64,000 bases of DNA from the NCBI GenBank assembly GCA_964590575.1, contig CAZPWM010000002.1:20299-84298 (forward strand), in the 5' to 3' direction. The notes under the pieces are model-generated. The model saw only the letters and a list, made by a program, of their open reading frames with translations, had not been told where the DNA came from and made no database searches. Shown here piece after piece: positions 32,125-47,188 of this stretch. Within the stretch, counting starts at the first letter, position 1; each line of letters opens with the position of its first letter. The DNA comes from an uncultured archaeon (lineage in GTDB: Archaea > Asgardarchaeota > Thorarchaeia > Thorarchaeales > Thorarchaeaceae). Both the position numbers and the translations under genes were made by a program.

Positions 32125-32420
32125 GCTCTCGTCGAAGAGAGGGTCTTATGCGACGTAAACGTCGTGAGGCTTTTCTGGTGGCCCCGGTGACGGAAACTAC
32201 CCTCGACGGATAGCAAGCTTTAAATCGCCAGCAAATTAGGCTGGCGGAGCGCTCACTGAAATAGTGATGTGCTAGCGTTTGGTCCGGAGTTCAGAGTTTT
32301 CGAACAATGAACAAAGGTTCATCGGGACCAGGTCATGAGTGAGGTACCATTCCCGATGGAGGACCGTCAACGTGTACGGCTCTGTGAAATGTGTCATGGA
32401 GAGTCAGACGCGTGGACTGC
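32125..32420 (+). ncRNA. Highly structured ~300-nt 5' leader of the pre-23S RNA (or a co-transcribed ncRNA)
   Basis: Nested helices GTCGA 32131/TCGAC 32203, CGCCAGC 32226/GCTGGCG 32240, GCGTTTG 32275/CAGACGC 32405; no ORF. Confidence 0.55.
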
Positions 32421-32559
32421 AGAGGATGGAGGTACACTGATTCAAAATGAATTGTAGGGTAAAAAAATTAAGTTACTACAATAACTCCTTGGCATGATTA
32501 GAGATAATCATGTTCACATTGAGTGGACAACAGGTAATACTGTGTCAATACATAAGTAG

Positions 32560-32566
<7 letters not shown>
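32421..32566 (+). other. 5' arm of the 23S processing stem, including the BHB half GACAAC-AGGT-AAT-ACTGTG (32526-32544)
   Basis: 32421-32435 pairs with 35703-35717; 32473-32491 pairs with about 35674-35695; BHB half pairs with 35656-35674. Confidence 0.85.
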
Positions 32567-35632
<3,066 letters not shown>

Positions 35633-35640
<8 letters not shown>

Positions 35641-35717
35641 CAAAAGTGTACTTCGCACAGTACCTAGGGTTGTCAAGAAGAGTTCATTGTAGTAGCGAAG
35701 TAGTATCTCCATCCTCT
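35633..35717 (+). other. 3' arm of the 23S processing stem with BHB half CACAGT-ACCT-AGG-GTTGTC (35656-35674)
   Basis: Forms a canonical 3-4-3 bulge-helix-bulge with 32526-32544. Confidence 0.85.
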
Positions 35718-35873
35718 AGTCTTACCTATCATTTTAATCCATTCCACAATTTCAAACCCAGTGGAAGTTTTACTTGGCTTTTAGGCATAGGTTCTACGAA
35801 AGGGGTGGCCTTGTGGGGTCAGAAAAAGGAAACAATAAGTAAATATGAATCTAAGTAAAGTGGTGTATCCATT

Positions 35874-36575
35874 ATGAGAGGGGAATCACATCTGACAGCT
35901 TCATTCATGATTAGCCTGCCTACTCTCATGGTTCTGTATAATATGGCACCAGATACAATGATTGACGTGATGGGTTATGTCCTTGGAGGGGTATTACTGG
36001 GTTGCTTACTACCTGATGTAGATGCTTCGGATGCCAAGGTGATGCATGGATATTGGAGGCCAATCGGTCTTTTTGGAAAATACCTATTCTATAAACCAAT
36101 GACATGGATTTTGAGAACTCGCTCTGACGCATATCGAGAGCAACACCGCGGATATTTACACTCATTTATTGGTTGTTTTCTCGCAACGATTTTCTTTGCA
36201 ATCCCGATAGCTATCATATTTCTACATTCAACATATGTACTGCTTCTTCCCTTAGAAACGACTATTTGGGTTTGGTTTGCATGGATTGGATTACCCTTTG
36301 GTTTTCTAATGCATTTGGTTGAAGACAGCTTCACAAAATCAGGAGTACGATGGATTTTTCCTGGCGGTAAAACCTATTCAAGTCAGACAACCACTGGAAA
36401 AAAGAGTGAGTATAATCTTCTATCAGCATTCGTCGTCACATATGGCATTCTCACAGTTATTGTATACATGGCGCCTCCCTCGTTTATTGTTCTATTTGGG
36501 GCTATTCTTGGATCCCTGGTTTTGTTGGGTGCGCTTTATGCGGCTAATCCGATAATTAGTAGACTTTCAAAGTAG
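35874..36575 (+). CDS. YdjM-family membrane metal-dependent hydrolase
   Basis: MRGESH, GCLLPDVD, HRGYLHS, HLVEDSFTKSG. Confidence 0.88.
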   Translation: MRGESHLTASFMISLPTLMVLYNMAPDTMIDVMGYVLGGVLLGCLLPDVDASDAKVMHGYWRPIGLFGKYLFYKPMTWILRTRSDAYREQHRGYLHSFIGCFLATIFFAIPIAIIFLHSTYVLLLPLETTIWVWFAWIGLPFGFLMHLVEDSFTKSGVRWIFPGGKTYSSQTTTGKKSEYNLLSAFVVTYGILTVIVYMAPPSFIVLFGAILGSLVLLGALYAANPIISRLSK

Positions 36576-36921
36576 ACTGGTGCCAAGTAAAAATGACCGG
36601 AAATAGAACTGTAGAAAGTGCTACTTTTCCGGGTCAGTAAGGGTTGTGGGAACAGATTAGTACTGTCAGTGTTCCAATGTCGCAAAATCATCTGGAAAGA
36701 CCGGTTGGAAATGGGTGCGGTGCGAGAGCAACTTGCCCTGTTGGAGAGAGCCTGATTCGTATTTGAATGGTCGGAAGTGCAGTCACCTCACTTGCATCCT
36801 CTTTGTCACAGTCCACCTCACGGATCGAACCCACTGGCAGGTCATGCTCCTGCAACTTTTCTCTCCACAAGCCTTGAGTATAGTATAAAAGAGCTTGCTG
36901 GAAAGATGATATCGGAGGGAA

Positions 36922-37896
36922 GTGACGTTCAAACCAGACAAACTCAGTAAGGATGCTATATCCGCAGTGAAGCAGATAATAGGTTATAGAAGCACTCCGA
37001 TGGAAGACAGACCACAAGTAGAAGATATGTTTCAGACATCATTTGGAAAAACACTTGGTAGCCAAGTTGGTGAAATTCTAGATTTTGCAAAGAGAGGACA
37101 AATTCTCCTAATAATACTTCCACTCACTAAAATCATGGAGAAATTACAGAGATTCATTCAAGATGGAAGTTATCTTAGGGCTGAGGAAAGCTCTCTATCA
37201 CCCAAAGATATTGATAAGATGAAGGCCTTTGAGGTTGTCATGCAGGATGTCGATGTTGAGGACACTGTAGAAACTGTGGAAGATGTGATAGACCAGGACG
37301 ATGAGCTCTGGTACCTGTCATTGATAACATTTACAGTGTATGCGTATGTGGATGTTTACTCGAAGAGTCTAATCAAAAGTTTGACATCAAATCCATTACT
37401 GATGGAGAAATTAGAAACATATCTTGAAAGAGAAGCGCTTCAAAATAAAGACGATATAGAGAGAAAATATGTCACATCAGTTACAGATCTCTCGCAGTAC
37501 GGAGTTAGTCGGAGGCTTTGGACCATAGAAAGAGGTCTGTCAATAGACCAGATTTTATCTAAGATCACAAATCCAGATGTTCTTAGCATAATTAGAAGCA
37601 GCTTTATCAAAATCATAAAAACAAGACATAAAATTGCACATAGAAATCCAAAGTTGAAAAGAGATGACTACACATATGAGATGTTTGAGGGTGTTTCAAA
37701 CACTGTCGAAGAATTGGATTTCACTTTTAATGAAATAGAAGAAACATTCGGATTTCTGAAGCCAATATTTGGCACAATCAAAAATCTGGGAAAGCAGACA
37801 ATGGATAGAATTAAGAGAACTATGAATATTGCCTACATGACAATGCTGTATCCAGCATTAATTGATGTAGTAGTTCACGATTTGATGGAAGATTAG
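36922..37896 (+). CDS. HEPN-domain protein (putative RNase/defence effector)
   Basis: All-helical pattern with RHKIAH (R-x4-H); TATAAAA at 36884 and GGAGGG SD before the GTG. Confidence 0.6.
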   Translation: MTFKPDKLSKDAISAVKQIIGYRSTPMEDRPQVEDMFQTSFGKTLGSQVGEILDFAKRGQILLIILPLTKIMEKLQRFIQDGSYLRAEESSLSPKDIDKMKAFEVVMQDVDVEDTVETVEDVIDQDDELWYLSLITFTVYAYVDVYSKSLIKSLTSNPLLMEKLETYLEREALQNKDDIERKYVTSVTDLSQYGVSRRLWTIERGLSIDQILSKITNPDVLSIIRSSFIKIIKTRHKIAHRNPKLKRDDYTYEMFEGVSNTVEELDFTFNEIEETFGFLKPIFGTIKNLGKQTMDRIKRTMNIAYMTMLYPALIDVVVHDLMED

Positions 37897-38185
37897 TAAT
37901 AGTGATAATGATAAGTCATTTCTAATTATGAGTAAGAATCTCTCAAAAAGGATGGTAATCGTTTCTTAGTGCACAGGGAGTGATGACTTCATAACATCGT
38001 AGGTACCCAGACTAGAAATGTGAGGTTACCATTGATCTTGAAATCGAAAACAAGACAGGACATACACTCGCACCTAATAATATGGCAATTAGCACAATGG
38101 ATGGATGGTTTAAGGGCATCCACCCACAAGTATCAGGACTACCCCAATGAAGCACCGCACCGGATACAGACACTTCGGGTGAAGT

Positions 38186-38220
38186 GAAAAAAGAGGGGGC
38201 GGCAAATTAGCACCGCCCCA
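38186..38220 (-). terminator. Intrinsic-type terminator of the SMP-like gene
   Basis: GGGGCGG...CCGCCCC stem followed by CTCTTTTTT on the minus strand. Confidence 0.65.
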
Positions 38221-38239
38221 TTGAACTGAGAATTAGTGA

Positions 38240-38368
38240 TTACTTCTTTGATCCACCTCGATCGGCTGCACTCTGTGCACGTCTAGCAAAACCTTGATTT
38301 CGACCAGACTTGGCTGAATGACTCTGGATTCTGGATGCTGAACTCTTGGACATTCCTTTTTTTCCCAA
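38240..38368 (-). CDS. 42-aa SMP/LEA-like small basic stress protein
   Basis: GGAGGTGA SD plus TTG at 38368; ASRIQSH...GFARRAQSAADR motif; own terminator. Confidence 0.7.
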   Translation of the reverse strand: MGKKGMSKSSASRIQSHSAKSGRNQGFARRAQSAADRGGSKK

Positions 38369-38452
38369 TGATTCACCTCCGTATTCATCATGAGGAATAC
38401 TTGGCAGAATCAGAATATCAGACTTTGATGATGTGCATTGCATACGAATATT

Positions 38453-38482
38453 GTGCAAATCAGATTCACAGTACCTAGAGTT
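38453..38482 (+). repeat. Left half of a degenerate second copy of the 23S 3' arm, ending in the 10-bp direct repeat ACCTAGAGTT (38473-38482)
   Basis: GTGCAAATCA vs GTGCAGATCA (35633), 9/10; CACAGTACCTAGAGTT vs CACAGTACCTAGGGTT (35656), 15/16. Confidence 0.8.
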
Positions 38483-38494
38483 AAAACCTGTATC

Positions 38495-40231
38495 TTACAA
38501 TTGTGAGTGAACTGCAAGAGACTCCTGTGTTCCACCTTTCTCACGACTACTGTCACCAGCTTCTGAATGTCTGGGGTCTTTCAGAGTGTCGCAAGCTTTG
38601 CCCCTCTTCACTGGAACATCGTTCCTCTGATGGGACCTGGCTTCTGTCCGCTGCATTGATTCACACTCACCAGTTGGTGCGATTGCAGTCGGTGTTTCCA
38701 CAGCATTTGCCATGGCAAGGTCTTTGCCCCTCACAAACTCCACAAGTGAAGTCTGGTCATAGGAGCCAGCCACGGACTCCCCTTTCGAGTCTGGTGTCCC
38801 CTGGGGGAGTGCGGACTTCCCTACAGAAGAAGACTTCTTCCTCCGGGCTTTCAGTATGGCCCTATCCTTAGAGGTGAGCCACATCCCTAGTCCGTTCTCA
38901 TCTCTCAGTGAGGGGATGAGCATGATGAGGCGCTTCCCAATGTTGAGAGCGCCATTCAGGTCGGCGTTCAGCTTTAGTCCACAAGTGGTACAGATGAAGA
39001 GATTCTGCTTCGGTCTCGCTCCCTTATGTCCGCATTTGTGACACATGATGGAGGTCCATTGCTCTGGAACTGCTTTGAACCTCTTGGGATCGAAACCAAT
39101 TGATGCGAGCTTGTGCTCCAGCATCCCACTGATTCTTGCAAAGGCCCATCGGTGAATCTTTCCCCTGTACTCTCTTCCCCTGCTGTTCCCCTTGCGGGCT
39201 ATGTTCCTGATTCCCTTCAGCCGACCGATTGAGACATAGAGGTCATTTTGGTTTGTCATCTCTCTGATGTGGTCAGAGATGTCCCTAATCAGTTTCTTGT
39301 CATACTCTATACTGATTCGTTCTCTCTTTCCACTCAGACTCCTGAGCTGTGCAGTCACTCGATCAGTGTTCTGACCTTTGGAAACAAGGAGCTCTTTCTC
39401 TTTCTGGAGTGAAGCAACCCTCTCATCCAAAGACCTTATGCGTCGGAGCTTGTCCTCTTGTTTCCAATATCTGACGTGCTTGTATCCCTTCTTGGTTAGA
39501 AGGACTGAACACGCAGCCTTGTTTATTCCAAGGTCGATGGAGAGAACAGCAAGGGGCTTTCTAGCGGTATCAATCCTGTCAACAGCAAGAGTGACGGTGA
39601 AGATAGCCCACCACTTGCGACGAGAATCCTTGAAGATTCGAACTGTCTTCACATCTCCCTCCTTCATCCTGTTTAGATGAAATGATGAGATGGAGAGGGG
39701 AATCATGAGTCTATCATGCTGATAACGCCCCTCATTCACAGAGTCCAGCGAGTCCCGTAGTTTCAACCAGTGTCTAATCTCCAGCTCTGGTGAGTATACA
39801 AGCTCAAAACGTTGGATGAATGCAAAGCGTGGGATCTTTCGAGTAGAATATCCTATTCTCCTAAGGGGTTTGGAACCACCTTTTTCAAGATAGCTCTGCC
39901 ACATGGCAACTGCAGTACCCCTACACTCCTGAAACTCGTTCACTGAAATGTTTGGAAATCGAACCTTGAAGTCATGGGGTACCGAACTTCGGTTGGCTTT
40001 GCCTCGGGATGCTGTCAGGGTGAGTTCATCTAGTTTATTTGCGTCAAGTTTACTTCGTCTACGACCTATCAGCAACTCGTCTTCGTGACATTCAATCACT
40101 CCAAGATACGCCCTGATGACTCTTGTGTCTCTTCCAGTAATTCGGTTGAGCCGAGTCTTCTGCTTGTCAGTCATAGAGTCCCAACGTATTGGGACCTTCA
40201 CACTGATTATTGTACCCTTGGAGCGACCCAT
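38495..40231 (-). CDS. tnpB: TnpB-family RNA-guided nuclease with rearranged (Fanzor-type) RuvC and a long C-terminal tail likely overlapping the omegaRNA
   Basis: RuvC-I SIDLGINK; canonical Glu replaced (VSIGRL); alternative Glu VPEQWTS; CHKC..CTTC zinc ribbon; RuvC-III NADLNGALNI. Confidence 0.9.
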   Translation of the reverse strand: MGRSKGTIISVKVPIRWDSMTDKQKTRLNRITGRDTRVIRAYLGVIECHEDELLIGRRRSKLDANKLDELTLTASRGKANRSSVPHDFKVRFPNISVNEFQECRGTAVAMWQSYLEKGGSKPLRRIGYSTRKIPRFAFIQRFELVYSPELEIRHWLKLRDSLDSVNEGRYQHDRLMIPLSISSFHLNRMKEGDVKTVRIFKDSRRKWWAIFTVTLAVDRIDTARKPLAVLSIDLGINKAACSVLLTKKGYKHVRYWKQEDKLRRIRSLDERVASLQKEKELLVSKGQNTDRVTAQLRSLSGKRERISIEYDKKLIRDISDHIREMTNQNDLYVSIGRLKGIRNIARKGNSRGREYRGKIHRWAFARISGMLEHKLASIGFDPKRFKAVPEQWTSIMCHKCGHKGARPKQNLFICTTCGLKLNADLNGALNIGKRLIMLIPSLRDENGLGMWLTSKDRAILKARRKKSSSVGKSALPQGTPDSKGESVAGSYDQTSLVEFVRGKDLAMANAVETPTAIAPTGECESMQRTEARSHQRNDVPVKRGKACDTLKDPRHSEAGDSSREKGGTQESLAVHSQL

Positions 40232-40263
40232 TCATTTCACCTGAGGATTTAAACTTCTGACCT

Positions 40264-40314
40264 GTCTCTTTCGAGTTCACTCCCTTTCTCGTCAAGATGA
40301 AAGGTTTTGAACTC
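40264..40314. repeat. ~50-bp imperfect inverted repeat of 38478-38522, bracketing tnpB
   Basis: Collinear complementary blocks GAGTT, AAAACCT, ATCTT, GAGTGAACT, AAGAGAC. Confidence 0.75.
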
Positions 40315-40480
40315 CTACTATTTTCTGTTACATAAGGGGATTTAAACTTATTAAGCCGTTTATGAAATAAGGCATTATGAGGCACTATTATTTAAAATAA
40401 GACATTATCAATCCTTATTTGACTCACCAATAAGAACGGATATCTTATAAATTAAAATATAAGGAAGATACTGATTTGAT

Positions 40481-43400
40481 ATGGGTCGCAAGCCTAGGGA
40501 GATACATCCGAATGCAATACTGACTGTCTCGATCTATACAGGACTTGCTGCATTGGTCAGGCTTGCGAGAAAGCGAGTTGACAAGAAGACACGGAAATAC
40601 CTTGAGAGCATTCTAACACATTGGAGCAAAGCTCGAGAAGAACACAAGAAGAATCGAGAGAGTGTTGGAAGACAACGACTTGACTTCTCCTCAATCAAGA
40701 ACGCAGAGTCCAACATGCGAAAATTCTTCCTCAAGATTCTCTGGCACAGTACGCGACGTTATGGGAACAAGGAATTCAAGCGGGTATACAGCTGGGAAGA
40801 GGGAACTGTTGGACCACTTAATGCATTACTCAACTACCTTGGAGCCCGACTGAGAGACCTAGCAATGACCAGATATCCATTTCCAGAACCCGAGAAATTC
40901 CAGATCAGGGTATATCCAGATGAGACAAGATTGACGGTTCAAAAGAAACACGTGTCTAATTATGCACAGGATAATGCTGAAGACACATACTGGAAGGCAG
41001 GATACAAGGGAAACAGGAAACATCCCACAGTGTTGTTGACACACCCCTCACTACCAGGATTGGACTTTGTTGATATGATACGTGCCCATGGTGTTGAGCT
41101 TGTCCGTCAGTGTTTCATCCACAATGTTCCACGGTCTGAAGCTCACAGGTACATCAGATTGTTGCTCCATAGACTCACTCCGTTCTTGGACCATGTCTAT
41201 ACTCAAGGAAAGTGTGGTAGAAACTACTTCGAGCCAGATGCCGACAAGGAGCTCAGAAGACTGGTTCTGGAGATCCGTAGTCGATACAGTGGGCGTGTGG
41301 GGAAGAAACAGTCCATATCCAGAGGTCTGGACCTGGACATCCCGGAACCCGATGTGGACATCTTGTGGAAGAAAGTGAGTGAGCTGGTTGAAAACACTCA
41401 GGACAAGAAGACAAGAAAGAGATACGGAAAGATTCTGGATAATATTGACCAAGGACTAATTGTAGACAGGGACATCCAGAAGCTCTATGACCAGGTCTTT
41501 GCCCTTGGACAGAAGGAGGGAAATGACTGGCACAGAGTCCTCCTGTCGGACCTTCACCACCCCGTGTCGTTGAGGTCTGTGATCTTTGCTGGGGACAGGA
41601 TGCTTGACAAGCCCACATCGGTCCTGATTGTAGCCGAACTCCCAGTGAAAGGACTCGAAGGGATTGGACGCATAGATTTGACCGTGTTCATCAGGCTAAA
41701 CATCAAGGGGCGCGTGTTCTGGAGTCCTGTGATGGTCATTGAGGTCAAGTCAAAGACCTCTTTCGACTTCAATCTCTATGCTGTGAAGACTGGTAAGAAG
41801 AAAGAGTGGCCCCCAGTACTATACGTATGGAAGAGAATTCTGACACAGGAGGAATGGGACAGGACCATAGAGTCAGACCCTGATGACCGGGTCTTAAAGC
41901 AACTCGAGGCCTACGAAAAGGCATTGTTGGAGGAGAGCAGGACTCTGATTCCCAATGGTGTCGAACTCCCAAAGAGGCTCCTGAAGGGAGTTATTGTGCT
42001 TGACACAGATCAGGACTACTCGGAGGTATTCAATGCTTTCCACACTCTTCTCGATGAACTGACCACTGAGATTCTCAAAGGCGGACTTGATGTGAGAGCA
42101 ACTCAGACACTGTCTCTCAAGTCAGATGATGTTGGTGTTACCATTCCACGAGTTGCACTGATGCTTCTAGAGAGCGAGAACATAGACACATTCCTCAGGG
42201 AGCAGTCAGCTACTTTGTCACTCTCTGTTGAGAATCCCTTCAAGGAGAGAGTGTCTGATGACCGTCTGCTGACACACTATGTTTCAATTTCTTCTTCAAC
42301 ATCTTTCGGGAACGCAGCAGCATGGGTTTCTAGAAACTGGCACCTTTTGAACCACATCGAGGAGGTCGCTGAAGGATTGAGTGAGGACCTACAAGTCTAC
42401 TGGCTCGATCTCTTGGGTGACTATCCATCCAAACAACTCATCAAGAGAAGGTTTGGTCTTGACACTCTATTGAAGCACAAGCAGATTGCCAAGAAGAGGC
42501 ATGAAGCACTGACCTCTCTCCTTGAGAGTATCACCTTTGTCAACCTGAGAAACAATGTTGAGTCTATTATCTCTGGGGAATCTGCCGAACTCCAAGAGAT
42601 CAAGATGAAAGGCCCTCATGACATGGAGAGAATCATCATTGTTGATGGATGGGTTCAAATCAGAGAGATGGTTTCTCCAGGTGAAGCGGACATTCTGAGA
42701 AACTTTGAAAACCACCTCTTAGATGTTCTACCCACCCAGAATGTGAATGTGATTTGGATTGACAGTGGAGTCACCCACACAAAGATGAACAAGCACTATC
42801 AGAGGGCCTGTATAAGACCTCTACGTCACGACTCCCCTCGCCGGTTTCACATAGACGAAATTATCTACAATGTACCAACTGCACCACGGTTGTTTGGTTG
42901 GAGGGTTCCAAGAAATGAGGACACGAGGTTCATCATCCAAGACACTCCAACCTCCGCAGATCCCTGGATACGACCCATAAGAGTGCCGCAACTGAGGGGA
43001 TGGGCCCGAAAGTATCGAGGAGTCACAAAAAGGGATGGATTCGTCGACCCAGCAGATGTCTATGGGATTGACTTCGAGGGAGTACCTATGTATGGTCGTT
43101 CTGTGACACTCAATGAGGTCCACTCATCGATTGCACCCCTGACATCTGAAACTGTAAAACATCTGCAAGGAATTGGAAAGACCCTCATCCCAAGTCTATC
43201 AAGGCGAGAGGAATCAGCTCCAGACAGACAGTCAACAGAGAAACAATGGAGGGGGGTTCCGTTGCCCGTCACCAGAAAGGACTCTCCTTCACTCACCGAC
43301 AGAATGACTTTCACACCTGGGAGACCTCCTCCACAGCATCACAAGAATAGGGGATTGTATGTTGATTTCTTGAAAATCAAGAGGGGCTGGTACTATGACA

Positions 43401-46120
43401 GAATCCCCATTGATATCAATGACGAGGAGTATGAGGTGGGAGTTTCCCGAAGACCACCAATATATCGAAGGACTGGACTGGATGAGGTGGATTCACAAAA
43501 AGTCCGCAGGAGAGAGGTCAAACGAGTCATGAGCGCAGCGAGATTCCTGAGAAGACAGCTTGACAAAGACAAGAATAGTCGCCTTCACTCATGCTGCGGC
43601 GACATTATCAGAGTGTGCGCAGATGTGCTCTCAGACACCCATGATGAAGAGGCCTTGTTGGTCGTTCTATCGGAGGTTAGAGGCATCATTCTCCGTGATT
43701 CTTGGAGGGCCCAACTATGGGACCTTGTTGAGAGTTCAAGAGAAACAGTTGGTGACGTCCTGACGACTGACAACAGGACTGTACTGACAATGGCTAGAGA
43801 ATTCTGTCCTGACATTCTCTCCCTCTATGGGAACAATCTGTTCCTTGCCCTTCTCACAGTTATCAAGACACACTCCCTGAAACCTTCGGAGGACGTTATC
43901 ATAGCCCTCTGGGAGTCGATGGCTGAATGGCGGTTGTACCAGATGGGATTCCGTCAGAAGGACCATGCAGAGGAGACTGCAAGTTCACAGTATGACTTCC
44001 AGTTCATCTACTCGAAGCTGGTGCTCCGAGTAGAACATCTGACTGATGTTACCACCCCACCTCTTCAAGCACCAGTCGAGGATGTGGCCTACGGCCAGCT
44101 TGTTTGGACTGAGAGAGAAGGTGCTCAGGATGTATGGGTTGTGTTACCAGACGTAAAAACGCCACTCCTTGGCCTTGAGTGCGGAGTCAGGGGTAGTGGA
44201 ATGAAGCCTGGGTGGCATCAATGCGTGACAGATCCATCTACCCTGAAGACCTCAGTCAAGACTCTATCTGAAACTACGCTGAGGAGTCAGATTGCCCGGA
44301 CCGTTATTGGGAAGACTCACATTCTATGGTTCATGGATGAGGTCGAAGGGGAGTATCAGTGGACTACACCAACAGTCTTTGAATTTGCCATCAGTAAAGA
44401 GGATGGCCGATTGCTTCGATGGTTCAGGCTCTCTCCTGTTCTTGAGAGTATCTTCTTGGAACTGGAGAAGAACAGACCCAGACAGATTCCAAGGGCTGGA
44501 ACTGATGTGGACTCTCTGCTTTTTGGAGCCTTCAAAGGTTCACAGGACATTGAAGAAGTGAAAGTCCAAGTGAGTGTGGACATTGAAAACGAACTGTACT
44601 TGGTAGAGTTCAGTTCCGGTCATGTTTTCAGAGTGAGGAACACGCATGAACTAATCGGTCTGCTCAAACATCCTTACCTGAAGGGAGCACCTCTCAGGAC
44701 AGATGATGATAGACTGTTGTTCTGGGACCATAAGAAGGACATCGAGTATGCATATGTTGTTGACAGGCGAGGGAAGAAAGGTCATGTCATAGACCTTTCA
44801 TTTCTCAGACCTCTGGTTCATCGTGCGAACCTATTTTCTCTTGGTGACTTATTTCCCAAGACCTGTGCAGATCTCCTCAACACGAGTGATGGAGGAACCA
44901 TCACTCTGGTTGCGAAGGTGGATAATAATCGTCGGAATAGGGGTGATTTCAACTTCATCAAGGTCAGACTGATAGGACTACCAAAGAGGTCGCGGTTGAA
45001 GACTCTTGAGGATGAGTGGATGAACCCATATGATTTAGAACTGATTCTTGGGTGTGAAGGATTGGTTGACTCCACTATTGGAAACAACTTCTCCCTTGAA
45101 ACAGATGTGAGTGAGCTGAGGGGTGTTCGTCTGCCTTCGGGACTGGATGAGGACTCACAACTAGTCAAATCCCTCGTTATTGAAGACGATGGAGAGGAAG
45201 AACAGAAACCGTTACTTCCGGAAGGTGAGTGGACCCTGTCCAGTAAGTTCAAGGGGGGAACTATCCAATGGAGTCTAGACTCACCACTCGCAAATCAGTT
45301 GTGGATGGGCAAGACCTTTAGTACAAGGCTGGACGGGACTCTGAGTATAGAGGAAATGGTGAAGGAGTTTATCGGGGAGCTGAAGATAGTAGGTGCATCA
45401 AAAGATAATATCCACAACTTTGATGAAGAGCTCGATGACATAAGAGAAGGACTCAGAGGATGTGGTTGGGGGAACGAGCGTCCAGAGTGTAGGGCTGAAG
45501 CTGTGCAAACTGGCGGAGGGGTCAGAATATCTCTAAGAACCTGTGGAGAGAATGAGGTCATAGTCTATGAAGATGTCATCAATCCAGGTGAAGATGATGC
45601 TGCGGACTTGGTAATCGATGCTCTTGATGATTATGAATGGTCTAAATACACTACTGTGAACAAAGAGGAGTTCAGGAGGATGTTGAGAGGAATCTTGGAC
45701 GACGAAGAGCTGGAACCAGATGTTGTTGATGTTGAAGAGGCAGAACTGCTGATGATTGTTGAAGAATGTAGAGTCGAGGGTAACCTTAGGTGGATGTGTA
45801 GTCAGACAAACACACTGGTAGATTATTACTTACGACAAGAGCGGCTTGATGTTGCTCTAGAGAAGATAGATGAGAATCTCTCAAATCTCGAGACCTTGGA
45901 CTTGGATGATGAAGATGGACGTTGGTACTTGTTCATAGCCAGAGTCTTAAGAGCTGAGATACTCCTTGCAACAAATAATCCCAAAGAGTCAAGGAAAGAA
46001 ATAGACAAAGCCTTTGAGATCATTCCTGATGATGTTGAGTTGTGGATGTTAGGAGTTGGGACAAGAAGAGAGTACTATGAGCGAGGTATGAAACTTAGAA
46101 CTGATGTAATTGATTGTTAG
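40481..46120 (+). CDS. 1,879-aa protein: PD-(D/E)xK nuclease, degenerate P-loop/RecA-like region, long uncharacterised C-terminus
   Basis: AELPV..GRIDLTVF..VIEVKSK..QLEAY; YVSISSSTSFGN, VYWLD, IIIVDGW; TPR-like terminal helices. Confidence 0.75.
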   Translation: MGRKPREIHPNAILTVSIYTGLAALVRLARKRVDKKTRKYLESILTHWSKAREEHKKNRESVGRQRLDFSSIKNAESNMRKFFLKILWHSTRRYGNKEFKRVYSWEEGTVGPLNALLNYLGARLRDLAMTRYPFPEPEKFQIRVYPDETRLTVQKKHVSNYAQDNAEDTYWKAGYKGNRKHPTVLLTHPSLPGLDFVDMIRAHGVELVRQCFIHNVPRSEAHRYIRLLLHRLTPFLDHVYTQGKCGRNYFEPDADKELRRLVLEIRSRYSGRVGKKQSISRGLDLDIPEPDVDILWKKVSELVENTQDKKTRKRYGKILDNIDQGLIVDRDIQKLYDQVFALGQKEGNDWHRVLLSDLHHPVSLRSVIFAGDRMLDKPTSVLIVAELPVKGLEGIGRIDLTVFIRLNIKGRVFWSPVMVIEVKSKTSFDFNLYAVKTGKKKEWPPVLYVWKRILTQEEWDRTIESDPDDRVLKQLEAYEKALLEESRTLIPNGVELPKRLLKGVIVLDTDQDYSEVFNAFHTLLDELTTEILKGGLDVRATQTLSLKSDDVGVTIPRVALMLLESENIDTFLREQSATLSLSVENPFKERVSDDRLLTHYVSISSSTSFGNAAAWVSRNWHLLNHIEEVAEGLSEDLQVYWLDLLGDYPSKQLIKRRFGLDTLLKHKQIAKKRHEALTSLLESITFVNLRNNVESIISGESAELQEIKMKGPHDMERIIIVDGWVQIREMVSPGEADILRNFENHLLDVLPTQNVNVIWIDSGVTHTKMNKHYQRACIRPLRHDSPRRFHIDEIIYNVPTAPRLFGWRVPRNEDTRFIIQDTPTSADPWIRPIRVPQLRGWARKYRGVTKRDGFVDPADVYGIDFEGVPMYGRSVTLNEVHSSIAPLTSETVKHLQGIGKTLIPSLSRREESAPDRQSTEKQWRGVPLPVTRKDSPSLTDRMTFTPGRPPPQHHKNRGLYVDFLKIKRGWYYDRIPIDINDEEYEVGVSRRPPIYRRTGLDEVDSQKVRRREVKRVMSAARFLRRQLDKDKNSRLHSCCGDIIRVCADVLSDTHDEEALLVVLSEVRGIILRDSWRAQLWDLVESSRETVGDVLTTDNRTVLTMAREFCPDILSLYGNNLFLALLTVIKTHSLKPSEDVIIALWESMAEWRLYQMGFRQKDHAEETASSQYDFQFIYSKLVLRVEHLTDVTTPPLQAPVEDVAYGQLVWTEREGAQDVWVVLPDVKTPLLGLECGVRGSGMKPGWHQCVTDPSTLKTSVKTLSETTLRSQIARTVIGKTHILWFMDEVEGEYQWTTPTVFEFAISKEDGRLLRWFRLSPVLESIFLELEKNRPRQIPRAGTDVDSLLFGAFKGSQDIEEVKVQVSVDIENELYLVEFSSGHVFRVRNTHELIGLLKHPYLKGAPLRTDDDRLLFWDHKKDIEYAYVVDRRGKKGHVIDLSFLRPLVHRANLFSLGDLFPKTCADLLNTSDGGTITLVAKVDNNRRNRGDFNFIKVRLIGLPKRSRLKTLEDEWMNPYDLELILGCEGLVDSTIGNNFSLETDVSELRGVRLPSGLDEDSQLVKSLVIEDDGEEEQKPLLPEGEWTLSSKFKGGTIQWSLDSPLANQLWMGKTFSTRLDGTLSIEEMVKEFIGELKIVGASKDNIHNFDEELDDIREGLRGCGWGNERPECRAEAVQTGGGVRISLRTCGENEVIVYEDVINPGEDDAADLVIDALDDYEWSKYTTVNKEEFRRMLRGILDDEELEPDVVDVEEAELLMIVEECRVEGNLRWMCSQTNTLVDYYLRQERLDVALEKIDENLSNLETLDLDDEDGRWYLFIARVLRAEILLATNNPKESRKEIDKAFEIIPDDVELWMLGVGTRREYYERGMKLRTDVIDC

Positions 46121-46123
46121 ACA

Positions 46124-46179
46124 ACCTAGAGTTGTTCAAGGAATGTGTGTTGTAGTAATGAATAGTATCTCCATCTTCT
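46124..46179 (+). repeat. Right half of the degenerate 23S 3'-arm copy, starting with ACCTAGAGTT
   Basis: ACCTAGAGTTGTTCAAG..TTGTAGTA..TAGTATCTCCATCTTCT aligns with 35662-35717. Confidence 0.85.
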
Positions 46180-46218
46180 GATGTCTTTATTTTTCTCCTT
46201 GCATTTTATGAAACAGCA

Positions 46219-47188
46219 ACCTCCATCCTTTGTTGTCGTTTTTTTTCTTTTTCACAAACGTTGATTAGATAAACCAAAACTGAGAATCATTACGATGATT
46301 CAGAGAGTTCTATTGTTCAGAAACCTACTAGATAACATACCTAAGAACATTGGACTATACTCAGTGGGCGTCATGCTTCTTTTTCTGTTTCGTGTCACAT
46401 TTGACCCATTGCAATTGCTGTTGGGACTGCTTGCCTTCATGGTTTCTTATTCATCGATTTATGTGCTTAACGATCTATATGATATTGAAGACGACAAGAA
46501 AGATGAAAAGAAAGTTCTGAGAAAACCCTTAGCTCAGGGCGTCGTGAATAGAAGCGAAGCTGTGAAGATTTTCCTTTCATTTTTGATTCTGGGTCTTCTA
46601 CTCTCTATTTTTCTCAATATGTTATTCTTCTGTGTAGTTAGCTCATTAGTCTTCATCAACATGATTTACTCTATTCCATTAACAACAAACACGAACCAGA
46701 GCATAGAAGAGGTGAGTCCAAGAAGATTGAAACACACTATGTTTGGACCATTTCTAGTTTTCCTCATGCAATTTCTGAAGATTTTCCTTCCTTGGACATT
46801 TAACACAGAGGTGATGCAATTTCCAGTTCTTTTTGCTATCGGATTTTCTCTCGTCTATGTTATACTTTTCAAAGGTTACAAAGAATATCGCACTATTGGA
46901 GAATCTGTCAAGCAGACACCGTTTTCCTTTTGCTTCGCGATTGTTGTTTTCTTATTGTCAATGAGCATATATCCCGAACCTTTAGTTCAAGCATCAATAG
47001 TACTCTACATAATTGCAGGAATCATGTTCTTCTGGAATTCACACATTACTGATAGAAGGATCTTACTATTGAGCCCAATCTATATCCTTCTAGGAATTCT
47101 GATCTTGTTCTATTTAATGACAAATGTACTGACCTGACAACAAAGTTATGCTTGATGAGTAGCACGTGACCTCCATCACTTGTTGTCG
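46219..47188 (+). repeat. 18/20-bp direct repeats flanking the ubiA-like gene
   Basis: ACCTCCATCCTTTGTTGTCG (46219-46238) and ACCTCCATCACTTGTTGTCG (47169-47188). Confidence 0.6.
46295..47137 (+). CDS. UbiA-family prenyltransferase-like membrane protein
   Basis: YVLNDLYDIEDD..RKPLAQG; multiple TM helices. Confidence 0.8.
   Translation: MIQRVLLFRNLLDNIPKNIGLYSVGVMLLFLFRVTFDPLQLLLGLLAFMVSYSSIYVLNDLYDIEDDKKDEKKVLRKPLAQGVVNRSEAVKIFLSFLILGLLLSIFLNMLFFCVVSSLVFINMIYSIPLTTNTNQSIEEVSPRRLKHTMFGPFLVFLMQFLKIFLPWTFNTEVMQFPVLFAIGFSLVYVILFKGYKEYRTIGESVKQTPFSFCFAIVVFLLSMSIYPEPLVQASIVLYIIAGIMFFWNSHITDRRILLLSPIYILLGILILFYLMTNVLT

Follow-up and report, generated by a model that had tools for sequence, protein, structure and literature searches.

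A predicted Cas1-type integrase domain in a giant protein encoded beside tnpB in a Thorarchaeota genome

A 64,000-nucleotide stretch of an uncultured archaeon of the Thorarchaeia (contig CAZPWM010000002.1, positions 20,299 to 84,298; hereafter the window) contains a two-gene mobile unit of 7,641 bp (38483..46123) in which a giant gene (40481..46120, plus strand) lies head to head with tnpB (38495..40231, minus strand). As a first-pass annotation of this DNA had proposed, the giant gene is a real open reading frame, uninterrupted from an ATG start and encoding 1,879 amino acids. Its N-terminus is predicted to be the catalytic domain of a Cas1-type integrase, and we interpret the giant, with a probability of roughly 0.55, as an enzyme that would insert the unit by a staggered cut, with TnpB and its ωRNA serving homing or retention. 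The protein had been annotated as uncharacterised, but its family is already in print: passages of Altae-Tran et al. (2023; PMC10691335) describe Asgard Cas1-homologue ("aCas1") proteins linked to TnpB, which replace the usual transposases beside some TnpBs in two groups (Cas1H-Asgard-1 and -2), state that aCas1 is "likely to be the transposase" and note that aCas1-TnpB loci are often flanked by repeats. The giant and tnpB are this published aCas1-TnpB module and thus belong to a known class. We claim no novelty relative to print for several features described below, namely the Cas4-like domain and the apparently dead RadA-like one, the duplication of 10 bp, insertion at rRNA trailers and tRNAs, the IS607-type TnpA of some relatives and the partner swapping. 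The primary description of the Asgard Cas1 homologues is reportedly that of Makarova et al. in 2020 (CRISPR J 3:156). We found no bench work on the module in the literature.

The Cas1-like alpha-helical catalytic domain (residues 1-270; 40481..41290, plus strand) is predicted from structure matches together with invariant motifs. An AlphaFold2 (AF2) model of residues 1-900 was built from a 73-sequence alignment (predicted local distance difference test [pLDDT] 84.1, predicted template modelling score [pTM] 0.82), in which VIA aligns residues 2-256 with the helical catalytic domain of Cas1 at Z 11-13. All top rows in this region are Cas1 or casposase entries, more than 10 of them, aligned over 171-193 residues at a root mean square deviation (rmsd) of 3.7-4.1 Å. 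They include Archaeoglobus fulgidus Cas1 (4n06_B; Z 12.9, rmsd 4.1, 193 residues aligned), 9p11_C and 9p1d_F (both Z 13.0), Cas1-Cas2/3 (8flj_A; 12.9), ICP1 Cas1 (4w8k_A; 12.0), RT-Cas1 (7kft_D; 11.4), a casposase (6opm_A; 11.0) and Cas4/Cas1 (7mi4_A; 10.9). The first-pass annotation had described a basic helical N-terminus; it is indeed helical, and what that description missed is the Cas1-like catalytic nature of residues 2-256 brought out by VIA.

The catalytic Glu, His and Asp of Escherichia coli Cas1 are E141, H208 and D221. In an alignment of 28 members of the giant family, E76, R80, R101, N114, G121, R125, H188, D195, D198 and R201 are invariant (28/28). E76, R101, N114, H188, D195, D198 and R201 stand in register with the invariant E155, R179, N189, H220 and D232 and the LDLSExFR motif of 29 Asgard Cas1 proteins, in that H188...LD195FVD198MIR201 (LDFVDMIR) corresponds to GFLH...LDLSExFR of Cas1. 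The best local alignment from hhalign, itself non-significant, pairs E76 with E155, R101 with R179 and GPLNALLNY with PPxDPxNALLSxGY. The catalytic Glu, His and Asp-x-x-Asp-x-x-Arg motifs of Cas1 are conserved in the giant. The N-terminal beta-sandwich domain of Cas1 is absent from the model, which has no room for it because residue 2 already aligns to Cas1 residues ~81-114 onward. Canonical Cas1 (PF01867) was found in none of the 14 genomes of the host genus searched (14/14). PF01867 domains with E values of 1e-6 to 3e-10 lie at G041:C5:121343-122176, G041:C4:342074-342907 and G058:C9:5285-6127, within frames of 1,325-1,367 amino acids that belong to another Asgard family and represent other giant Cas1 fusions.

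The family is largely confined to relatives of the host. A word-index search returned 78 homologues of 1,035-1,889 amino acids and 25-71% identity, and almost all of the named ones are from "Candidatus Thorarchaeota." When a hidden Markov model (HMM) of the first 560 residues was run against 1.84 billion representatives, there were 164 matches at E ≤ 1e-3, and among the 150 matches listed all were family members or fragments. By genome, the family is present in 50/76 genomes of the host's taxonomic family, 3/11 of one further family and none in the other 28 families sampled (54/301 across the phylum); within the host genus it occurs in 14/24. About eight paralogues of the giant are present in the source genome, an assembly of 3.4 Mb in 194 contigs. 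Searches of the giant with Pfam, NCBIfam and PADLOC gave no match except a sub-threshold TPR, and neither phmmer nor a family HMM found anything relevant among PDB sequences, Cas1 included.

The association of the giant with tnpB is strict. Every giant paralogue of the source genome whose 5' end is on the contig has a head-to-head gene of the TnpB family. Across 27 loci surveyed in the source and other genomes, a divergent tnpB-like gene lies 200-260 bp upstream at all 23 that contain the start of the giant, the remaining four being broken by contig ends and lacking that start. Four of four further places also carry a head-to-head tnpB, so that the arrangement holds at 27/27 informative places in about 20 Thorarchaeota genomes. 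The giant-tnpB pairing is obligate. The partners are of two types, a short (S) type of 578 amino acids (C2, C64 and C141 in the source genome) and a long (L) type of ~700 amino acids with RuvC and zinc-ribbon motifs (C6, C69 and C123). On a quick maximum-likelihood tree of the first 560 residues of the giant, the partner type switches at least four times across well-supported branches; the pairing has therefore been kept through partner swaps.

TnpB of the window is of the S type and matches NCBIfam NF040570 (E 8.6e-27) and Pfam Cas12f1-like_TNB (E 1.4e-13). It retains the RuvC-I and RuvC-III Asp residues, and the canonical RuvC-II Glu is replaced by Gly. An alignment of 19 TnpB proteins has Gly at this position in 9/9 full-length S-type sequences, with a conserved Glu (VPExWTS) about 50 residues further on, and FE(D/N/S)L retained at RuvC-II in the L type. 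Gly substitution with an alternative Glu defines the "rearranged" TnpB class in passages of PMC10691335. The 249-nt spacer between the two genes (40232..40480), a divergent promoter region, is 78% conserved with the paralogous copy on C64. Metatranscriptome contigs from two studies cover tnpB at 97-100% identity and both end at 40259, a weak hint that this position, 28 nt before the tnpB ATG, is the start of the tnpB transcript. The giant gene had no cover in two RNA runs, which is no evidence of silence.

The ends of the unit were placed by homology and by a flanking repeat. Relative to the unit on C64, with protein identities of 70% and 80%, DNA homology spans the interval between the two stop codons and goes no further. 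Immediately outside lies a 10-bp candidate target-site duplication, ACCTAGAGTT, with a left copy at 38473..38482 and a right copy at 46124..46133, 3 nt past the stop codon of the giant (both plus strand); a 10-mer common to both sides arose in 45 of 20,000 trials with shuffled 55-nt flanks. The flanks themselves resemble the 3' trailer of 23S rRNA. One copy of this trailer repeat, part of the rRNA processing stem, lies at 35656..35717 (plus strand), and a second, ~79% identical, has its right part at 46124..46179 (plus strand) and its first 16 nt (CACAGT + ACCTAGAGTT) across the element at 38467-38482. Rejoining the left flank, CACAGT + ACCTAGAGTT, with the right flank, ACCTAGAGTT + GTTCAAGG..., yields one 60-nt trailer-like repeat. 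The 10-bp repeat, with flanks that restore a single trailer, therefore indicates that the 7,641-bp unit inserted into the second rRNA trailer copy. An inverted match joins 32415-32433 and 46219-46237, and pairing of the 5' flank with 35703-35717 was read from the sequence. A single element of 10.4 kb (35718-46123) was considered and rejected in favour of the tnpB-giant unit, because homology with C64 ends at the stop codons and ACCTAGAGTT brackets only 7.6 kb. Some DNA contigs connect 35674 with 46219 and 35678 with 46222, but their sides are only 26-30 nt long at 90% likeness, and they give no more than a weak hint that relatives lack the whole island.

Other copies lie in unrelated surroundings, next to genes for RNA polymerase B, ribosomal proteins, ABC transporters and others. 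At locus L087 a tRNA 3' half together with ~22 nt is directly repeated on the two sides of the unit, and L092 has a diverged version of this repeat. A tRNA-Lys gene lies ~100 nt from tnpB in C69, L031 and L032 (identified in C69 by inspection of the sequence only), tRNA-His adjoins the unit in L030 and tRNA-Leu that in L028, and L033 and L093 have the same flanks. Together with the window copy, these positions suggest that aCas1-TnpB elements land beside rRNA and tRNA genes, which would be safe-harbour-like sites. We favour a mobile unit because of the approximately eight paralogues, the unrelated flanks, the 10-bp duplication and the tRNA repeats of L087 and L092.

The 3' end of 23S rRNA and its trailer are an insertion hot spot in the host genus; partial copies of the 23S end recur between 23S and UbiA. 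In other genomes of the genus 23S rRNA is likewise followed by UbiA, the two being separated by 0.9-9 kb of differing DNA, and the window unit is absent there. Partial copies of the last 25-200 nt of 23S plus trailer, up to at least six in one genome (G137), are separated there by 1-2.5 kb of unrelated DNA (window 35642-35760 and 46121-46240; L080, L076, L082, L081 and L084). In genome G098 (L029) a different unit, of 39% identity, has its tnpB end abutting a 201-nt partial copy of the 23S 3' end, the DNA just outside tnpB being sense 23S rDNA. A search beyond the giant's end at L029 found no rRNA sequence, and the G098 copy was accordingly rejected as a simple insertion. The resident 23S of G098 (L029 12652-13557) has a longer, different variable helix near its 3' end than the partial copy (L029 1-201), which resembles the 23S of the window genome (92%).

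C-terminal to the Cas1-like domain, the giant carries a RecB/Cas4-like PD-(D/E)xK nuclease (residues ~361-535; 41561..42085, plus strand). Every aligned member has E386, D399 (GRID), K423 (IEVK), Q474 and Y478 (QLEAY), and at least 90% have E421; in the model these residues lie on strand-strand-strand and then helix, the order expected of the nuclease core. The call is made from motifs, the domain being absent from fold-search lists that other domains filled. Residues 360-535 have no Cys among invariant or near-invariant columns, so that the Fe-S cluster cysteines of Cas4 are lacking. Residues 593-890 (42257..43150, plus strand; YVSISSSTSFGNAAAW ... IIIVDGW) are modelled with the fold of RAD51, RadA, DMC1, KaiC, DnaB and Twinkle cores (Foldseek E from 1.6e-4; VIA Z 11-12.4). 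The family consensus SPTSSGxxAAW has no Lys where Walker A has GxxxxGK(S/T), and this RAD51/RadA/KaiC-like domain is predicted to be catalytically dead.

The C-terminal half was modelled separately (residues 940-1879; 69 sequences, pLDDT 87.4, pTM 0.40). The model contains a helical domain (residues ~1006-1190) and beta-rich domains (~1202-1739) at 43493..45724 (plus strand). The ~750 residues from 1005 to 1748 gave no credible fold match, which does not make the fold new: fold searches with this model returned TPR rows and otherwise low-probability rows (nucleoporins, B-family polymerases and Vip3), and a search of the ESM Atlas with residues 1000-1750 of a homologue gave no usable match. Residues 1749-1879 (45725..46117, plus strand) form a TPR domain (VIA Z ~13, rmsd ~2 Å; Pfam TPR_14 E 0.008, below the curated cut-off). 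The first-pass annotation had read much of this architecture correctly: the nuclease motifs it named are present, with D/E/K residues kept across the family, its degenerate NTPase-like region has a RecA core in the model and lacks the Walker A Lys in the family consensus, and its TPR-like C-terminus is borne out by VIA.

In the mechanism that we propose, the Cas1-like domain would join the element ends to staggered target positions, producing the duplication, and the nuclease domain would cut or trim those ends; the dead RecA-like and TPR parts may bind DNA or protein and help in assembly. TnpB-ωRNA would take its guide from the DNA adjoining its end and cleave empty sites, and the element would thereby be copied back. 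The first-pass annotation had offered two roles for the giant. A mobility enzyme is now the better supported of these, on account of the Cas1-like N-domain and not through the use of a restriction-like nuclease in the manner of R2 or TnsA. Homologues fixed in the chromosome without flanking duplications, or unconserved catalytic residues, had been named as grounds for abandoning the first-pass interpretation; it is not refuted on these grounds, because the D/E/K residues are conserved and the window copy is flanked by the 10-bp duplication. The other role, defence cargo protected by TnpB, finds no support, as the giant has no PADLOC match and is strictly paired with tnpB in unrelated genomic contexts.

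Several observations weigh against a Cas1-type integrase that moves the unit. First, helical domains can reach a Z of ~13 by chance in VIA, which is why motif evidence was sought for the Cas1 domain; comparison of the N-domain with 29 Asgard Cas1 proteins in hhalign was non-significant (Prob 0.6, P 0.09), and none of Pfam, NCBIfam, PF01867 run over the genomes or the family HMM run against PDB links the domain to Cas1. Second, terminal inverted repeats of the window unit are not above chance (best end-to-end score 7, shuffle mean 7.2), and, in the 12 S-type units with both ends available, direct repeats, which differ widely in length (10 bp or ~45-60 bp), occur at the ends of only 3, inverted tRNA pieces in 2 and nothing in 7. 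Third, the closest copy of the giant within the genome is only 70% identical, and there is therefore no sign of recent transposition. Fourth, solo S-type tnpB genes without a giant exist in the source genome (G000), at C111 7574-9310, C11 27888-29651 and C8 45864-47057 (81%, 61% and 45% identical). Finally, the IS607-type TnpA of some L-type units could be the real transposase there. In the solo copies, homology to the window stops 65-85 nt upstream of the tnpB start.

An IS607-type TnpA (Resolvase plus MerR-type helix-turn-helix) lies just past the stop codon of the giant, on the tnpB strand, in C123, L034 and L036, all of the L type, and L030 has a TnpA remnant. In C123 and L034 the tnpB stop and the DNA just outside tnpA carry inverted repeats, 14 nt long in the former and 21 nt in the latter; the giant thus lies antisense between tnpA and tnpB, in an IS607-like frame. 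The giant might then be accessory to, or a passenger of, an IS607-type tnpA/tnpB transposon that a serine recombinase moves in cis or in trans, with a role such as end processing, recombination-coupled repair after TnpB cutting or that of a nuclease effector, and the solo tnpB copies agree with this in that tnpB persists without the giant. We consider such a role rather unlikely. TnpA accompanies only L-type units (three plus one remnant among those checked): no TnpA or other recombinase was recognised in S-type units, the window copy has no tnpA, and C123 is the only match in the source genome to two TnpA queries (tblastn). Serine recombinases produce no target duplication, unlike what is found in the window. 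One would not expect a cargo gene to be found with tnpB at 27/27 places and through at least four partner swaps, nor does the invariance of the Cas1-type catalytic residues fit such a role.

The 3' end of tnpB bears on how TnpB would be guided. A conserved, probably structured ωRNA-like region (38483..38742, minus strand) overlaps the tnpB 3' end and runs to the element terminus. When 14 S-type 3' regions were aligned, the last ~230 nt of tnpB and the adjoining sequence formed a conserved block with hairpins that, by eye, are apparently kept by paired changes. The block terminates in ..GGTGGAACAcAGAAGTTTC, followed by 4-11 variable nt and then GTTCACTCA, a motif published for aCas1-TnpB loci that was recognised by sequence match at 38504..38512 (minus strand) and is present in 13/14 aligned copies, with TTCACTCA instead in L028. 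The guide of TnpB is supplied by the DNA just outside the tnpB end, as established for the TnpB of IS200/605 and IS607. In the window this DNA is antisense rRNA trailer, and a 16-mer of it recurs at trailer copy 1 with one mismatch; the tnpB-side end is ...GGTTTT and the adjoining flank, AACTCTAGGTACTGTG.., is the candidate guide stretch. Downstream of tnpB, in tnpB sense, L093, L033 and L028 have two to four repeated end-like units of the type GTTCACTCA..N..A(G/A)CAGGTCA (GGTCA end), some of them partial, spaced at 4-60 nt and lying beyond the element end. These units could be footprints of repeated insertion or a rudimentary array.

The combination of Cas1 and a Cas4-like nuclease is the hallmark of CRISPR adaptation, and the giant contains predicted domains of both kinds. 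It might thus be an adaptation-like enzyme that inserts or replaces short DNA by the ωRNA scaffold and GTTCACTCA and so reprograms the TnpB guide, in a CRISPR-less or proto-CRISPR system. Passages of PMC10691335 note a hypervariable stretch beside the conserved GTTCACTCA, which is likened to the start of a CRISPR repeat. The stretch between scaffold and GTTCACTCA also varies here in length (4-11 nt) and sequence, and the repeated end-like units and the lack of canonical Cas1 in all 14 genus genomes searched are compatible with such a function. It is nonetheless quite unlikely. No CRISPR array was found in 30-52 kb of the window and no repeat family in 31-49 kb, and the aligned 3' regions likewise contain no regular repeat-spacer array. 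A stretch of 4-11 nt cannot hold a guide, the end-like units are incomplete and follow no regular spacing, Cas2 was not seen, and the rRNA or tRNA match lies in the flank beyond the element end rather than in an internal spacer. That the giant both moves the element and writes new DNA at the GTTCACTCA unit, giving TnpB acquired guides, is more improbable still. If it did, the module would be an extant transitional form linking a TnpB transposon with adaptive type V CRISPR, and the units of L093, L033 and L028 would be its first "arrays."

A further explanation is that the two genes are a domesticated, immobile host pair, forming a paralogue family specific to the Thorarchaeota lineage, in which TnpB, directed by RNA, performs a cellular task as regulator or nuclease in the vicinity of rRNA and tRNA genes. 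Identities of no more than 70% within the genome mark the copies as old, some positions are common to several genomes (tRNA-Lys by tnpB in C69, L031 and L032; the flanks of L033 and L093), and tnpB appears in metatranscriptome contigs of two studies. Domestication is very unlikely in view of the patchy distribution within the genus (14/24 genomes), the variable copy number, the unrelated flanks and a 10-bp duplication that splits a repeat at a place where same-genus genomes keep 23S-to-UbiA synteny without the unit. An integrase-driven mobile unit remains our preferred interpretation.

The window is archaeal, as it contains an archaeal large-subunit rRNA gene (32562-35641) and a gene for digeranylgeranylglycerophospholipid reductase. 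The 23S rRNA gene (plus strand) has no 16S or 5S beside it in the window, and no tRNA was found in the 64 kb. A gene for a YdjM-family membrane hydrolase (35874-36575, plus strand) lies between the two rRNA-trailer repeats; the genomes of the genus that were checked lack an equivalent at this position. It is followed by a 324-aa gene (36922-37896, plus strand) with a weak match to HEPN_RiboL-PSP (E 1.4e-4, below cut-off), which is 90% identical (94% in DNA) to a gene at L029 8302-9300, beside the giant end of the 39%-identical unit. Between this HEPN-like gene and the tnpB end is an open reading frame for a basic 36-aa peptide (38241-38351, minus strand; MSKSSASRIQ...), followed by a GC-rich hairpin (~38190-38225) and a T-run.

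CRISPR memory and the transposition of casposons both depend on Cas1 as integrase, and Cas12 descends from TnpB. An element with a Cas1-like protein and TnpB and no CRISPR array bears on the origins of adaptive type V systems and on the use of RNA-guided nucleases by transposons. The window copy is a usable test case, with exact ends, a 10-bp duplication, a reconstructable empty site, intact catalytic residues and tnpB present in metatranscriptomes.

Casposons produce a target-site duplication of 14-15 bp and insert beside tRNA or other conserved genes. A passage of PMC4046053 proposes their Cas1-family protein, which acts outside CRISPR, as the transposase. The window unit resembles them in having a non-CRISPR Cas1-family protein, the N-domain of which matches casposase 6opm_A (Z 11.0). 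It differs in containing only two genes, one of them tnpB, without the family B DNA polymerase gene of casposons (the C-terminal part of the giant gave only non-credible polymerase rows, at probabilities of 0.07-0.25), in its 10-bp duplication, in the lack of terminal inverted repeats above chance and in the absence of the Cas1 N-terminal beta domain from the giant. Cas4-Cas1 fusions occur in CRISPR adaptation modules of types V-B and I-U, according to a passage of PMC10691335. The giant likewise joins a Cas1-like integrase and a RecB/Cas4-like nuclease in one polypeptide beside a nuclease of the Cas12/TnpB family, and Cas4/Cas1 (7mi4_A) matches at Z 10.9; however, its order is Cas1 and then nuclease, it lacks Fe-S cysteines and has ~1,300 extra residues, and the window copy has neither a CRISPR array nor a recognisable Cas2.

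The resemblance to IS607 elements lies in the serine-recombinase TnpA and short inverted ends of L-type relatives and in a tnpB with an ωRNA-like 3' region that reaches the element end. The window copy differs from them in that tnpA is absent, a gene of 5.6 kb lies antisense next to tnpB and 10 bp are duplicated at the ends. The closest correspondence is with the aCas1-TnpB module as described in passages of PMC10691335. No feature of the window unit contradicts membership as set out there, and the shared features are the Thorarchaeota host, a giant Cas1 homologue beside tnpB, two TnpB lineages (S and L), GTTCACTCA at the tnpB 3' end and flanking repeats at some copies.

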